In this document: positions 5,084 to 9,929 of the stretch, in pieces
Layout: each line of letters begins with the position of its first letter
Position numbering within the stretch: position 1 is the stretch's first letter
NCBI GenBank assembly: GCA_964648855.1
Contig: CAZYLT010000004.1
Location: 199,532 to 231,531 of the forward strand
Source: an uncultured archaeon
GTDB taxonomy: Archaea; Asgardarchaeota; Thorarchaeia; Thorarchaeales; Thorarchaeaceae
Direction of reading: 5' to 3'
DNA: 32,000 bases
Made by a program: the position numbers and the translations under genes
Notes under the pieces: generated by a model
Seen by the model: the letters and a program-made list of their open reading frames with translations, nothing else
Told to the model about the DNA's origin: nothing
Database searches by the model: none

Positions 5084-5518
5084 CTATTCGAGCAAGCCTC
5101 TATCTCGAAGCCATGGCTCCGCTACTTGCACAACCCGTTCATAGAGTGGTCCGACACCATCAACGCCCTCAGGCGTAATTCTGATTTTGTTCATAATTAC
5201 TATAACAGACGTTTCAGGAAAGTATCTCACACCACCAGGTGGGAATTGCTTTTCTAGTTCCTTGGCGAGGCCCTCAAGACTGACTTCTTTCTCTGCTACG
5301 GCAAAGGAAGTGATACTTTCACCATAGATGAACATCTTGGGAATCTCTTCGCCTTCACTTGGAATGACTTCAGAGAGAACGATACTCATGCTGTTTTGAT
5401 CGATTCCAACCAATGTACCCGTGTATTCCTTACCATTCTTCAATTCTACCGTAATGGTCGCGCCAACAACCTGTGCCATCTCGCGGTTGAAGGCTCTCAT
5501 AGCTGCTACATCAGACAT
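5084..5518 (-). CDS. Sm-like (Lsm) archaeal protein with C-terminal domain, SmAP3-type
   Basis: Sm1 motif ITVELKNGKEYTGTLVGID..MSIVL and Sm2 MFIYGESI, plus a ~70-aa C-terminal domain; 144 aa; SD AGGTGA. Confidence 0.85.
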   Translation of the reverse strand: MSDVAAMRAFNREMAQVVGATITVELKNGKEYTGTLVGIDQNSMSIVLSEVIPSEGEEIPKMFIYGESITSFAVAEKEVSLEGLAKELEKQFPPGGVRYFPETSVIVIMNKIRITPEGVDGVGPLYERVVQVAEPWLRDRGLLE

Positions 5519-5605
5519 CTTGTTTCACCTTGTAAGCTGTAAATCTGAGCTTACTCACACGGCGATTTGCTGTTGTTTTAAAACCTCTGCTGTAGCTAGT
5601 GAGGG

Positions 5606-5649
5606 AAAAAATAGAGGGGGCGAAGCAGAGAATGACGCTCTGCCTTCGC
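5606..5649 (-). terminator. GC-rich hairpin plus U-tract downstream of the repeat-peptide ORF
   Basis: Minus strand GCGAAGGCAGAG-cgtcatt-CTCTGCTTCGC (11 bp, one bulge), then CCCCTCTATTTTTT. Confidence 0.7.
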
Positions 5650-5673
5650 TGTGTATCACCCAGTAGAACTTCT

Positions 5674-5796
5674 CTACCAGGGTTCCTGTTCGCTATCTGG
5701 GGGAAAGTCGCCAGGTCCAATGGTCCATGGTTCTTGCTCAGAGTCTGGCGGGAAGTCGCCAGGTCCAATTTTCAGTTCGTCAGTGTTTGCGGTCAT
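5674..5796 (-). CDS. Unannotated 40-aa acidic tandem-repeat peptide MTANTDELK-IGPGDFPPDSEQEPW-T-IGPGDFPPDSEQEPW
   Basis: ATG at 5796, TAG at 5676-5674. The two 45-nt units differ at 9 nt in 7 codons, all synonymous in this frame, and a terminator follows. Below the ORF-track size cutoff. Confidence 0.85.
   Translation of the reverse strand: MTANTDELKIGPGDFPPDSEQEPWTIGPGDFPPDSEQEPW
5677..5769 (-). repeat. Imperfect direct repeat: 2 x 45 nt, period 48 nt
   Basis: Units 5769-5725 and 5721-5677 both begin ATTGGACCTGGCGACTT on the minus strand. Confidence 0.95.
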
Positions 5797-6058
5797 TTTT
5801 GTTCAGATATTAATTGGTATGTAGCACACTAAATCCCACATGAGAAGAAAGTCGAATTCTGATACCTCAAAGCAACATTCTGAGAACTAATCCCGGACCA
5901 AAAACACCGCAAGAAGACGTGGAGAATATATAGCTAGAAGTGAAACATATTGTTTCCGTTCATTTTAGACCCGACAAGAGTTCACCACCGAATGTTAATG
6001 TACACTGCTGTTGCCCTAGAGAATGTATTATTAGGCAACTACACTGAACTCGAACCAA

Positions 6059-6901: not shown

Positions 6902-7429
6902 ATGCGAAAAGAAATACGAATTGCGGGAACCGGGGGTATGGGTGTAGTTCTTGCGGGTGTAATAGTCGGTCATGCGGCGGTGGTTCATGCTGGATTGAAT
7001 GCTGTTCAGAGTCAAAGCTATGGATCAGAGGCTCGAGGAACCGCAGCTAAGAGTGAGGTTATCATCAGCGATGGACAAATTAAATATCCAAAGGTTCGTG
7101 GCTCGGATTATTTTGTTGTAATGAGCCAGAAGGCATTGGAGTTATACATTGATGATTCTAAGAAGGGTAGCGTAGTCATAGCAGACCCTGATTTGGTAGA
7201 CTTCTCTTCTATTACTGAACAATACGAGGTAGTGCCCATTCAGGCCATTAAGACTGCAGATGAAATTGGATTACGCCTCGCTGCGAATATGGTCATGCTA
7301 GGCGCATTGGCGAAAAAATCGAGAATATTTTCAATCGAAGCATTAGAGAGAGCGGTTGCCGACATGGCTCCCAAAAAATACCTTGATAAAAACATAGAGG
7401 CGCTCAGAGCAGGAGTGGACCTGATTTAG
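6902..7429 (+). CDS. 2-oxoacid:ferredoxin oxidoreductase gamma subunit (KorC-like)
   Basis: IRIAGTGGMG, QSYGSEARG and ANMVMLGAL motifs; 6 nt after the beta subunit. Confidence 0.92.
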   Translation: MRKEIRIAGTGGMGVVLAGVIVGHAAVVHAGLNAVQSQSYGSEARGTAAKSEVIISDGQIKYPKVRGSDYFVVMSQKALELYIDDSKKGSVVIADPDLVDFSSITEQYEVVPIQAIKTADEIGLRLAANMVMLGALAKKSRIFSIEALERAVADMAPKKYLDKNIEALRAGVDLI

Positions 7430-7704
7430 CCACCATGTATAAGGGGAAGAATTACTACCTTGTCATCTGATTCGAGAATTGTATCAAGTCCATTCAACAT
7501 CTCGACATCTCGTTCATTTATCAATATCAGTGTCTCCCGACAAATCCTTTCGGGCACATGCCATTCCTTTCCTACCTCGGGATTACTGCCGATCAATTGT
7601 GCCAGTGCTTCTCCCACAGTACAGCCCTCTTGAATATCCAATGCAAGCGAACTAGAATCAATTCTTTTTGAAATTGGACCACGTATCGTGAAATGCACAA
7701 TCAT
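7426..7704 (-). CDS. Ubiquitin-like beta-grasp protein (MoaD/ThiS/SAMP family), Urm1-like
   Basis: 92 aa; LILINERDVEML..LDTILESDDKVVILPLIHGG with C-terminal diglycine. Confidence 0.85.
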   Translation of the reverse strand: MIVHFTIRGPISKRIDSSSLALDIQEGCTVGEALAQLIGSNPEVGKEWHVPERICRETLILINERDVEMLNGLDTILESDDKVVILPLIHGG

Positions 7705-8343
7705 CTAAATCCCTATTCCGCTAGCCCTTTCTCCTTGAAGGCGCATTTCAGAGTTTTCCTATCAGATAAATTTGTATTCATGACTATCATGGGAGAAGTA
7801 CTCATATGGGCAATAGGTATCCTCTGGTGGACATTAATCCTCTTCCCGCTCTATTTTGCTTACATGATTACTGATGTTGCAGTTTCATCATATCGCTCAC
7901 TAGTATTCATACATGAAGCAGTTGGACAAGAATGTAGTGGGATATGGGTTAAGAGATTTGACCCAGTGAAATGGACTCCCAGATTCAGAGTATTAGAGTT
8001 CTGTGGTTTCTTCTTCTATGTAATCTTAGCTCTCAATACGTTCATTTTTCCCTCTCCTTTTCACTCAGAAAATCTCTTGCGTCTACCTCTTCCTTTCACG
8101 GACTTACCTATAATCGAAATGCCCGCGGAGTCAGTTCTTCCCATGATAATCGTGTTTGTGCTCTTTGTTGTAACCGATGTGTTTGCCAATCTAGCAGATA
8201 TACTTACACAACGAGTCATGATTGCATTGGTCGGGGCAATACTAATTGCCAGAGGGTTTGGTTACCCCATTCCAAAAGCTGAAATCATAGTGCCAGCTCC
8301 TGAGAAAGAAGTCGAAGGAATTGAACAGCTAGAGGTCACGTAA
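7693..8343 (+). pseudogene. Truncated paralog of the downstream MFS transporter (C-terminal half only, internal in-frame deletion)
   Basis: Aligns by eye with the C-terminal half of 8370-9929 (LFPLYF.Y..TDVAVSSYR, W.PRFR, MP.ESVLPM, LTQRVMI, P.PKAE, terminal EVT). It lacks the N-terminal half and ~49 aa after TQRVMI. Start is uncertain. Confidence 0.6.
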
Positions 8344-8369: not shown

Positions 8370-9929
8370 TTGGCTTATCTTTCAACGTTAGCTGTGAAGA
8401 GGAGCAAATATCTGTTGGATACAGAAGAAACCATCAACCATCGGAAGGAGATACCCAATATAGATGACCGCAAAATTGTGCGTCATAGTATTCTTTCTCG
8501 GATTTTCGGATTCAGACAACCAACGGAAGCTGGTCTCACTTTGGCGCGAATACTAATTGTGTTGCTGCCAGCCTTTTCTGCATCTTTTCAGATATCCACA
8601 TCATTCTTCATGATCTACATTGCCGAGTCATTAGGTGGCGGCGATTACATAGCGGGACTGACTCTTGTAGGAATCTTGGTTGTAGTGCAAACCGCGGTTC
8701 AGACAGCATTAGACTATCCAACAGGTGTTCTAGGTGATTGGATTGGCCAACGTTTTGTTATTGCTTCTGCTCTAGTATCCTACGCACTTGCATTCTACAT
8801 CACTTCTACTGTGACGCAAAACACTCCCTTTGCGACCTTCTTGGTAATCTACATTCTAATGGGGTTTGCAAGCTCGCAGCAGAGTGGCTCATTCGAGGCA
8901 TGGTTTGATAATAATTACCGTGTTGCTATGCCCCATGATGAGGACAGAAAACAATACGGAGTATTCTGGGGAAAGCTTGGGATGTTGACCCAAGTGATGG
9001 CTACCTTGGTTCTAATACCTGGAAGTTGGCTGGCACTAGTTTTTTCAAGAACTTGGGTCTTTATGCTTCAGTCGATTCTTTGTATTATACTCTCCATTAT
9101 GGTCCTATTCCTTCTAAAAGACCTTCCAGGTGTCAGAGAAGAAAGAGAGGGCCGCCCCTCATTCTCAGAATATACAACCCTTCTCAAGGATGGTGTTAAG
9201 TTTCTATTTTCTGCGAAGTTCATCATTTTCATTATTCTGGGCGAAGTTTTCCTCTTTGCAGTTGGACCAGTCTGGTGGAACCTGTTACTATTTCCTCTCT
9301 ACTTTTCGTACCTGTTAACGGATGTAGCCGTGTCCTCTTATAGAACTCTAATTTTCATTCCTAATGCAGTTATGCAAGAACGGACAGGAGTTTGGGCACA
9401 AAAATTCGAACCGAAGAAGTGGATTCCACGGTTTCGGCTTTTCCAGTTCAATGGATTTATTGCCTTCCTGCTATTGGCGTTGCTAACATTCATATTTCCA
9501 ACTCCTCAGACATCCGAAACAATAGCTCTCTCAATCTTTGGATTTGATATAATCCAGATGCCCGTAGAATCCGTTCTTCCCATGACCATAATGTTCGCAA
9601 TCTTTGTTGTAAGTGGCATCTTTGGTGGCCTTGCAGGAATCCTTACCCAACGGGTCATGATTGATGTAGTCCCGAATCGGATTAGGAATAGTCTGTATTC
9701 TTTAAGACCAACTCTGGTGATGATTATGACCATGCCTCTTTTGGTCTTCTTCGGGTGGTTCATGCCTCTATTTGGTTTTCCGGCCACGTTCATTCTGACT
9801 TCGTTATTTGGACTGATAGGGACTGTATTGGTCAAGAAGGCATTTTCCCATCCCGTTCCAAAAGCAGAGGTTGTGACCATTGCCACTGAAAAAGAAACCG
9901 AAGAAGTAGAGGAAATGGAAGTCACTTAA
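8370..9929 (+). CDS. MFS transporter (start uncertain; TTG 8415 has an upstream AGGAG)
   Basis: Motif-A-like DYPTGVLGDWIGQR and about 12 hydrophobic segments. Confidence 0.85.
   Translation: MAYLSTLAVKRSKYLLDTEETINHRKEIPNIDDRKIVRHSILSRIFGFRQPTEAGLTLARILIVLLPAFSASFQISTSFFMIYIAESLGGGDYIAGLTLVGILVVVQTAVQTALDYPTGVLGDWIGQRFVIASALVSYALAFYITSTVTQNTPFATFLVIYILMGFASSQQSGSFEAWFDNNYRVAMPHDEDRKQYGVFWGKLGMLTQVMATLVLIPGSWLALVFSRTWVFMLQSILCIILSIMVLFLLKDLPGVREEREGRPSFSEYTTLLKDGVKFLFSAKFIIFIILGEVFLFAVGPVWWNLLLFPLYFSYLLTDVAVSSYRTLIFIPNAVMQERTGVWAQKFEPKKWIPRFRLFQFNGFIAFLLLALLTFIFPTPQTSETIALSIFGFDIIQMPVESVLPMTIMFAIFVVSGIFGGLAGILTQRVMIDVVPNRIRNSLYSLRPTLVMIMTMPLLVFFGWFMPLFGFPATFILTSLFGLIGTVLVKKAFSHPVPKAEVVTIATEKETEEVEEMEVT

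Follow-up and report, generated by a model that had tools for sequence, protein, structure and literature searches.

A two-unit micropeptide gene on a thorarchaeal contig

The 32,000-nucleotide stretch analyzed here (the window) belongs to an uncultured archaeon of the family Thorarchaeaceae (GenBank assembly GCA_964648855.1, contig CAZYLT010000004.1, positions 199,532 to 231,531 of the forward strand), whose genome, called G000 below, comprises 3.1 Mb in 62 contigs and is 94.6% complete. On its minus strand, at positions 5674-5796, lies a very short gene with the product MTANTDELKIGPGDFPPDSEQEPWTIGPGDFPPDSEQEPW, which reads as a 'leader' (MTANTDELK), a 15-residue unit (IGPGDFPPDSEQEPW), a single threonine, and the same unit again, followed at once by the stop codon. 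Re-reading of the minus strand confirmed the observation on which the original prediction was built. The two units, which a repeat search also recovers as a 45-nucleotide (nt) direct repeat with 80% nt identity, differ at nine nt across seven codons, and all nine differences are synonymous, a TCT/AGC serine switch among them. The peptide was kept in none of 200,000 random trials of nine substitutions. Because the copies differ exclusively at synonymous sites, both a chance open reading frame (ORF) and a non-coding repeat were ruled out as explanations, and the substitution pattern marks the locus as a genuine protein-coding micro-gene. Its stop-to-stop frame is just 42 codons long and contains one possible start. 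The 40-mer has the properties ascribed to it at the outset: 10 acidic residues and one basic residue, an N-terminus that is not hydrophobic, no signal sequence, and a terminal Trp.

The gene had also been credited with a terminator of its own, and a GC-rich hairpin followed by a T6 run was indeed found downstream of the stop codon (Table 1); none of 200 shuffled sequences was equally stable. A simple sigma-70/terminator scan made no minus-strand call at the gene, the hairpin being missed because the T-run lies more than 2 nt from the stem. On the 5' side, a TATA-like box occupies a common position in all four genes of the genus that were compared, namely the window copy, a second G000 copy on contig C3, the copy in genome G001, and the copy on metagenomic contig L115, with the variants CTATATATT, GCATATAAT, CTATTTAAT, and CTATTTAAT. 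Comparison of the gene region with Rfam gave no RNA family at E ≤ 1. Sequence variation at the locus was seen in run X4, an independent microbial-mat metagenome (2021), which contains the reference allele together with a second allele of the peptide gene (covering 5639-5803) that has 14 differences, with compensating indels at 5733-5743 in the DSEQE codons of unit 1.

Table 1. Positions of the micropeptide gene, its flanking signals, and related gene clusters elsewhere in G000. Unprefixed coordinates are those of the window. aa, amino acids; dG, folding free energy; UTR, untranslated region; MFS, major facilitator superfamily.
Feature	Position	Strand	Remarks
Two-unit PW-tail micropeptide gene	5674..5796	-	40 codons; ATG 5794-5796, TAG 5674-5676; build shared with 10 pattern-found genes
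'Leader' MTANTDELK	5770..5796	-	9 N-terminal codons; least constrained part; differs from C3 paralog leader MTNCNTLPETVR
Unit 1, IGPGDFPPDSEQEPW	5725..5769	-	
Spacer, single Thr codon	5722..5724	-	
Unit 2, IGPGDFPPDSEQEPW	5677..5721	-	Trp directly before stop codon
GC-rich hairpin, likely terminator stem	5620..5649	-	24 nt past stop; dG -15 kcal/mol, z -3.5
T6 run, putative archaeal termination signal	5606..5611	-	8 nt past hairpin
TATA-like box TATATATT, putative promoter	5925..5932	-	about 130 nt 5' of ATG; implies 5' UTR of about 100 nt
GH3-ThiF operon	L007:10433-13009 (G000 C3)		also at L091, L092, L093, L094, L115
Second tail-peptide cassette	G000 C37:34-2392 (locus L122)		48-aa ORF, two 13-mer genes, 83-aa protein, MFS transporter

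Further copies define a family of PW-tail micropeptides

The C3 paralog has 38 codons and encodes MTNCNTLPETVR, one copy of IGPGDFPPDSEQEPW, and the C-terminal sequence TFKLGYIHEPW. Its unit has the protein sequence of both window units, with 5 and 10 nt differences from the two, so that the three G000 copies of the unit stand 5, 9, and 10 nt apart in pairwise comparison, with every difference synonymous. Both genes have a conserved 5' region, the TATA-like box, and, past the stop, related hairpins, and these shared elements mark them as segmental duplicates from promoter to terminator, with the window gene as the unlinked duplicate of a C3 copy that sits in a cluster with the large protein c0 described below.

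Searches with the 40-mer or with an alignment of the two paralogs found no match outside G000 among 41 relatives, among 5.8 billion proteins of near and longer lengths, or in genome and metagenome contigs, and the search of the 5.8 billion proteins gave weak evidence that the motif does not occur inside larger proteins. The homology search proposed in the original prediction therefore yielded nothing beyond the host genome when run directly on sequence, whereas a degenerate pattern and synteny revealed a family. By position, the same-genus genome G001 was found to hold, in the same gap between the Lsm and the 2-oxoacid:ferredoxin oxidoreductase genes and on the opposite strand, a gene that encodes MTAKFHERTECI followed by DPFDPYNPEPW, the spacer TLKAV, and a second DPFDPYNPEPW before the stop. 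The degenerate pattern, GARCCNTGG-N15-45-GARCCNTGGTRR, fixes only EPW, 5-15 codons, EPW, and a stop, and leaves the unit bodies free. It gave 11 matches in the 86 genomes of the family, compared with one for the reversed control, and every gap was in frame. Ten of these 11 genes encode 2-3 protein-identical units that differ from one another at 1-9 nt, all synonymous. Unit bodies vary widely between species (FDPGDPDDEPW, VPTGRPPEPW, and DNPFTPPPEPW, among others), the spacers in relatives read T, TT, NT, NK, SCKT, RFDT, TLKAV, or SYVAVTCN, and the constants of the pattern-found genes are the ...(P)EPW ending and a stop directly after the last Trp. With the third identical unit at C3 and the pattern-found genes, the proposal of an old duplication under selection on the exact peptide is strongly supported and extends to the whole family. 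A tally of 19 within-genome duplicate sets, in which identical units differ at 96 nt or about half of synonymous sites, agrees with this, although it is partly circular since the units were delimited by amino-acid identity; the pattern search is the non-circular version.

Most of the ORFs linked to c0 are simpler than the window gene and consist of a single unit of 11-15 codons, for example MKPGEPSCPEPW, MRPSPQESDPEPWNR, and MKSKHPGRPFYPEPW. They are preceded by a GGTGA/GTGA Shine-Dalgarno box 6-9 nt 5' of the ATG, and a GC-rich hairpin with a T-rich stretch follows the stop codon of many of them; we regard these boxes and 3' signals as signs of translation and of an independent transcription unit. 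A hairpin also lies 3' of every multi-unit gene, with a T-run behind it in several. Tails in divergent genera are PW or PF, with one to four units per gene: G004 shows an A-B-A-B arrangement, in G014 three identical units are joined by a fourth, divergent one, and the genes of G047 and G015 contain two units each. Trp or Phe is the terminal residue, some members carry two residues past the Trp, and no member has a hydrophobic N-terminal segment. Judged by their sequences, these genes form an undescribed family of Pro/Asp/Glu-rich micropeptides with the tail ...(E/D)-x-P-(W/F), confined to one Thorarchaeota family. The single-unit micro-ORF is the common form, which we call ancestral, and the differing spacers point to multi-unit genes (2-4 units), that of the window included, having arisen several times.

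Two further observations concern possible additional members. At locus L113 (G047, 3 kb), four copies of DPSDPLTEPF were counted, compared with two in the ORF read, and a second peptide gene may adjoin. On contig C3 of G000, a putative gene at L007:9460-9804(+) encodes a 114-aa ORF that ends in ...ISEPW; it is convergent with the paralog peptide gene, overlaps a 153-aa ORF on the opposite strand, and has no Pfam match. Just eight six-frame ORFs of the whole G000 genome end in EPW.

The micropeptides are paired with a large protein, c0

At six of the nine pattern loci from other genomes, a gene for a protein of about 660 aa, c0, lies about 150-190 nt downstream on the same strand, and the G000 homolog of c0 sits at the C3 paralog locus, where it occupies L007:13205-15193. 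The original prediction was thus right that no partner is visible in the window, c0 being on another contig. The pairing also holds when c0 is taken as the starting point: a micro-ORF ending in (E/T)PW plus 0-2 residues was found upstream at 30 of 31 c0 loci from other genomes. The distance from peptide gene to c0 is mostly about 150-230 nt. In G008, G012, G015, and probably G096, the peptide gene lies downstream of c0. A conserved AAYTCTAAAATG box about 45-55 nt 5' of the c0 start in many of the fetched c0 loci (L066-L089 spacers) could be a promoter element or an operator, and it suggests that c0 has its own promoter.

The protein is widespread in the family and nearly absent beyond it. It was found in 75 of the 86 family genomes, in 1-3 copies each, and in a phylum-wide sample 65 of the 70 family members had it, as did one of 230 other genomes. 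A profile search of 1.84 billion representative proteins returned 166 c0 relatives only. The sole match outside the family (G264:C292, locus L089; E 1.9e-223), which has MRPGEPGLPEPWNH upstream, comes from a genome with 8% contamination, where its contig is 2.6 kb long, and mis-binning is a more likely explanation for it than transfer.

Other neighbors of c0 vary and include TFB paralogs, a giant Ig-like protein, rubrerythrin, and a GH1 glycosidase. The ATP-grasp, radical-SAM, YcaO, and peptidase genes whose presence the original prediction had suggested checking do not recur near the genes; among the annotated neighbors of the peptide and c0 genes, no protease, YcaO, radical-SAM, ATP-grasp, or lanthipeptide enzyme is recurrent, and there are no Opp genes. 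A link to the TrpRS gene that adjoins the C3 locus was considered and dropped, as other loci give it no support.

Peptide unit and c0 diverge together at a syntenic locus

Contig L115, from another sample, encodes a c0 homolog (P0004) and is syntenic with the C3 cluster of G000. In both, genes for a ThiF/E1-like protein (297 aa, nearest model PRK08223) and a GH3-family adenylating enzyme (560 aa) lie on one strand, divergent from c0. Protein identity between the two clusters is 89% for GH3, 75% for ThiF, and 54-93% for the flanking ORFs, and only 41% for c0, with the divergence of c0 spread along the whole protein. The L115 peptide, encoded downstream of ThiF, consists of MKTINHEKVECV, DPFDPYNPEPW, TLKAV, and DPFDPYNPEPW, and it has both unit and spacer in common with the unlinked copy of G001. 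When these two genes are compared, the nonsynonymous codon changes, seven in number, are all confined to the 12-codon leader, and the units and spacer show synonymous changes only. In each of the two lineages, then, one unit is common to the cluster copy and the unlinked copy. Of the syntenic genes compared between G000 and L115, c0 is the most diverged, and the comparison shows, at the level of sequence, peptide unit and c0 replaced together at this one syntenic locus pair.

The GH3 and ThiF genes form a conserved two-gene operon (Table 1). In G000, ThiF occupies L007:10433-11326 and GH3 L007:11327-13009. It adjoins c0 and the peptide gene in G000, G008, and G015, which represent three genera, and on L115, and it is located elsewhere in G003 and G018. 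In G000 the cluster peptide gene is about 300 nt downstream of ThiF. A search of 41 genomes found orthologs of the operon in 6, compared with near-universal occurrence of the peptide-c0 pair.

Predicted fold of c0 and its modeled complex with the peptide

c0 has no transmembrane segments. It matches no Pfam family at E ≤ 10, and hence no helix-turn-helix (HTH), AsnC, or tetratricopeptide repeat (TPR) model, and no NCBIfam family at E ≤ 0.01. In its AlphaFold model (pLDDT 82), residues 321-659 superpose on the siroheme decarboxylase NirDL (4ch7) with Z 10.9 and rmsd 5.5 over 271 aligned residues, and Foldseek matches the model to NirDL with E 2.8e-6, so that the C-terminal half is probably, at fold level only, a tandem of Lrp/AsnC-type winged-HTH and RAM domains. 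Atlas neighbors of c0, which serve as a lead only, are archaeal hypothetical proteins with HTH_24/HTH_AsnC (scores 0.81-0.90). The N-terminal region of about 350 residues, beta and helical in a separate model (pLDDT 90.7), resembles no solved fold (the best Z is 4.3, and none reaches 5) and gave no Foldseek hit at E ≤ 0.001; its weak peptidase-domain rows are not meaningful. No TPR structure was among the fold matches of c0. On the strength of the model, c0 looks like a ligand-regulated DNA binder.

Complex prediction for c0 and the window peptide gave a median score of 0.48 (runs 0.48, 0.02, and 0.56), compared with 0.01 for the best control, which lends weak support to binding. For calibration, of 80 solved complexes 58 attained the score mark, as did 2 of 110 mismatched pairs; scores at the mark yet no higher than 0.60 were obtained for 7 of the 80 solved complexes and for both of the passing mismatches. 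At least 22% of contacts agreed across the runs, and the partner pLDDT was at least 28.

A second cassette couples tail peptides to an 83-aa protein and a transporter

Tail peptides also occur in a different setting, exemplified by contig C37 of G000 (Table 1). The 48-aa ORF at this locus ends in ...VVQPPCEDPSPF, and two separate tandem genes, each preceded by a Shine-Dalgarno box, both encode MEPDLGAPSPEPF. These two genes differ at 13 nt, including a TTG versus an ATG start, and the peptide is unchanged. The gene for the 83-aa protein is present in 75 of the 86 family genomes. In 29 of 30 fetched loci, a tail micro-ORF (for example MNPGSDECPEPW or MKVDPISPDPEPF) lies 32-61 nt upstream of it, with a protein of the type ...PPCE/DxxPF/Y further upstream in the same loci; the 30th is cut by the contig end. 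An MFS homolog likewise follows the 83-aa gene in 29 of 30 loci. In the protein of about 48 aa, the N-terminus is helical and conserved and the tail reads ...VVQPPCEDPxPF. Comparison of the 83-aa protein with c0 showed no relationship (hhalign probability 0.2%), and it has no Pfam match and no usable Atlas match. Since tail micro-ORFs are found both beside c0 and in this second cassette, the acidic, Pro-rich ...P-W/F-COOH tail is a signature common to several small-protein classes of this lineage.

The micropeptide as a candidate trans-acting ligand of c0

The interpretation we place first, tentatively and at somewhat below an even chance, is that the peptide is a trans-acting cognate ligand of c0. 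The peptide would bind c0 in trans, with its invariant tail docking in a conserved c0 pocket and its variable body setting lineage specificity. If the unit is repeated, be it inside a single ORF or through tandem genes, an oligomeric c0 would meet a higher valency or dose of peptide, and the oligomer would in turn control transcription. Proteins of the Lrp/AsnC fold class typically oligomerize, and RAM domains bind small ligands at oligomer interfaces. Action in trans is argued by the unlinked copies: the window copy carries the unit of the G000 cluster copy, and the unlinked G001 copy likewise carries that of the L115 cluster.

Several observations weigh against this interpretation. The complex score counts as weak, with 0.02 in one of its three runs. 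The C-terminal fold match includes an enzyme, siroheme decarboxylase, as well as regulators, c0 lacks a Pfam HTH match even at E = 10, and half of the protein has no known fold; taken together, these points mean that c0 could be an enzyme acting on the peptide. Because the second cassette has tail peptides and no c0, c0 cannot be the sole partner of the tail motif. G001 encodes a two-unit peptide, yet its assembly, 90% complete, yielded no c0. The co-diversification rests on the single syntenic pair of G000 and L115, and the tally of duplicate sets has the circularity noted above. Some units are degenerate, as seen in the latter half of the C3 paralog and in the final units of G014 and G047, and the window copy is without an obvious Shine-Dalgarno box. 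Finally, the duplication of the C37 peptide as separate genes argues for dose, not bivalency. This last point also touches the bivalent short-motif peptide binding an oligomeric target that was one of three alternatives in the original prediction; with a co-diversifying, tandem Lrp/AsnC-like c0 now at hand, that alternative is otherwise the best fit of the three.

Alternative explanations

The main rival, which we consider unlikely but deserving of serious attention, is that the genes encode a multi-core precursor of a processed and possibly modified or exported peptide, resembling either a pheromone precursor or the ribosomally synthesized and post-translationally modified peptides (RiPPs) that the original prediction had listed. 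Each unit would be released as the same short -P-W/F peptide, with c0, the 83-aa protein, or GH3/ThiF acting as maturase or scaffold. Such a precursor would account for one to four identical units with the same end residue and a stop usually straight after the last Trp or Phe, and the separate C37 genes would then serve product dose rather than bivalency. The coupling of tail micro-ORFs to an MFS transporter at 29 of 30 loci of the second cassette fits export, the protein of about 48 aa in that cassette resembles a leader plus core, the carboxylate-activating E1-like ThiF and GH3 enzymes flank the peptide and c0 in G000, G008, G015, and L115, and the half of c0 without a known fold could be catalytic. 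The details of the genes fit less well. The common single-unit forms are just 11-15 aa long and leaderless, and among the two-unit genes variation is greatest in the leader, contrary to what is seen in RiPP leaders. No protease or RiPP maturase family recurs near the genes, the peptides have no signal peptide, and some members continue for two residues past the Trp. In addition, the GH3-ThiF operon is confined to 6 of 41 genomes while the peptide-c0 pair is near-universal, and the strict identity of units is not demanded of multi-core RiPPs.

A version that combines export with sensing is quite improbable in our estimation. Here the P-W/F peptides would constitute a 'pherotype' specificity system, exported via the MFS cassette and sensed by the co-diversifying c0. 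If true, it would be the first archaeal ribosomal-peptide system for cell-cell signaling or kin recognition, with components unrelated to the bacterial ones.

We give slightly less credence again to a cis-acting leader peptide, that is, an upstream ORF on which ribosome pausing controls read-through of the hairpin and T-run into c0 or the 83-aa/MFS genes. Pausing would occur on the Pro/Asp/Glu-rich body or at P-E-P-W-stop and would sense aIF5A, Trp, or termination. The order of Shine-Dalgarno box, ORF, hairpin, T-run, and gene, with spacing of mostly about 150-230 nt for c0 and 32-61 nt for the 83-aa gene, is what such a leader predicts, and so are invariant residues at the extreme C-terminus beside the stop. 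In TnaC-type arrest peptides the invariant residues are likewise at the C-terminus next to the stop codon, and P-D/E-P strings are slow to translate without EF-P/aIF5A. However, a stalling leader requires only its C-terminal part, whereas every residue of the body is under purifying selection between duplicates here, while the bodies differ between lineages. An ORF immediately upstream of a gene is also not a general property: it is found for most c0-linked and all 83-aa-linked members, but the window copy, the G001 copy with its inversion, and the genes of G008, G012, G015, and probably G096 that lie past c0 depart from it. Past the window copy come a hairpin and T-run of its own and then a separately conserved Lsm promoter, and at the same site the G001 copy is inverted. 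The stop-to-hairpin distance ranges, by eye, from about 18 to more than 50 nt, and a single hairpin was seen, alternative or antiterminator structures not having been sought. The AAYTCTAAAATG box, as noted, suggests a separate promoter for c0. Whole-body purifying selection, the unlinked copies, and the copies downstream of c0 similarly disfavor the translation-sensing peptide that had been proposed as a third alternative.

The weakest proposal, which we regard as very unlikely, is a C-terminal conjugation tag of the Pup/SAMP/ubiquitin-like kind. Its Trp/Phe carboxylate would be adenylated by ThiF and/or GH3 and joined to an amine of a metabolite or protein, and c0 would be its reader or its target. 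In favor of a tag are the shortness, acidity, and disorder of the peptide, its invariant C-terminus, the closeness of the G000 cluster copy to ThiF, and the position of the operon beside c0 and peptide in three genera and L115. However, this chemistry is possible only in the minority of peptide-bearing genomes that have ThiF/GH3, internal units and members with two post-Trp residues have no free Trp carboxylate, and the cluster contains no E2, JAB, or deconjugating enzyme. E1-like and GH3 enzymes both activate carboxylates by adenylation.

Relation to known peptide systems

In layout the genes resemble the RRNPP cassettes that Firmicutes and phages of Firmicutes carry (Rap-Phr, PlcR-PapR, NprR-NprX, Rgg-SHP, and AimR-AimP), and we mean this as an analogy only, not homology. 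In both cases a tiny peptide gene is adjacent to the gene for a large cytoplasmic protein that contains an HTH domain (predicted from fold for c0), a genome has several paralogous cassettes, peptide and partner diversify together along lineages, and the active part lies, or in our case may lie, at the peptide C-terminus. Unlike RRNPP receptors, c0 has no TPR sensor but an Lrp/AsnC-like half and a half of no known fold, the host is an archaeon, the peptides lack a secretion signal, and the cassette contains neither an Opp importer nor a processing protease. The tandem identical units with short spacers in one ORF recall yeast alpha-factor (MFalpha1), the cyanobactin precursor PatE, and the fungal dikaritin precursor UstA, in which units are also identical within a gene and different between species. 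In contrast to those precursors, the present genes lack a secretion signal, Kex2-type or cyanobactin recognition sites, and a conserved leader, and their commonest members are a single unit that makes up almost the entire ORF.

The C-terminal half of c0 superposes on the tandem HTH and RAM arrangement of NirDL/AhbAB and Lrp/AsnC regulators, but c0 differs from Lrp/AsnC proteins in having no Pfam HTH/AsnC sequence match, in its extra N-terminal region of about 350 residues without a known fold, and in that its presumed ligand is a gene-encoded peptide, not an amino acid. A tiny ORF beside a ThiF/E1-like enzyme, as at G000 C3, L115, G008, and G015, is reminiscent of microcin C (a 7-codon mccA and the ThiF-like MccB) and of PaaA. 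The terminal residue is Trp or Phe and not Asn, however, ThiF is missing from most peptide-bearing genomes, and the peptide is accompanied by the GH3 ligase and c0 instead of MccC-E genes. Short upstream ORFs with invariant C-terminal residues that include Trp/Pro, followed by a hairpin and T-run, are also known from TnaC, trpL, and SecM; what sets the present genes apart is selection on the entire body between duplicates and the existence of copies that are unlinked to the partner or downstream of it.

Because the RiPP, RRNPP, and MccA/MccB classes each fail at least one tested defining feature, we have filed the system, provisionally, as a new kind of micropeptide-protein module, with the leader-peptide attenuator as a possible though improbable class. 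The literature we searched contained no description of such a micropeptide-partner system. Three gene families, the tail micropeptides, the 660-aa c0, and the 83-aa protein, are unannotated or uncharacterized, with no Pfam or NCBIfam match, and they make up near-universal, lineage-restricted modules in one family of Thorarchaeota, an Asgard group close to the origin of eukaryotes. Protein-identical duplicates whose synonymous sites come near saturation, combined with joint replacement of peptide and partner in close relatives, are typical of co-evolving recognition pairs, and no report of this combination for archaeal micropeptides was found in the same literature. If c0 is a peptide-controlled regulator, it would represent a new mode of control for the Lrp/AsnC-type fold; if the peptides are exported or conjugated, they would point to a new archaeal peptide chemistry or form of signaling. 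In any case, the window gene is a concrete example of functional coding sequence below 50 codons that gene callers miss.

Genomic surroundings of the window gene

Downstream of the peptide gene on the minus strand lies a gene with Lsm and Lsm_C domains (5084-5518). The 78 nt upstream of this gene (5519-5596) are 99% identical between G000 and G001 and contain TTTTAAAA and AGGTGA boxes. The next 400 nt or so, which hold the peptide gene, are unalignable and inverted between the two genomes, and no convincing inverted repeats were found around the inverted cassette. A role linked to the neighboring Lsm protein was rejected, given that the G001 copy is inverted and that Lsm has its own conserved 78-nt upstream region. 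X8, the sole RNA run with part of the window stretch, covers 5439-5596 at the Lsm 5' end, and its loose end matches G001-type sequence, as from a G001-like strain.

At 7426-7704(-), the window encodes a 92-aa ThiS/Urm1-like beta-grasp protein with a Gly-Gly end. At its 3' end the gene overlaps the end of the convergent gene for the gamma subunit of 2-oxoacid:ferredoxin oxidoreductase by 4 nt, and at its 5' end it reaches into the start of the next gene. A 216-aa ORF at 7693-8343(+) duplicates the C-terminal part of the 519-aa MFS transporter that follows it at 8370-9929(+). These MFS genes are unrelated to the MFS gene of the C37 cassette. In place of the pair formed by the 216-aa ORF and the transporter, G001 has two full-length MFS copies.

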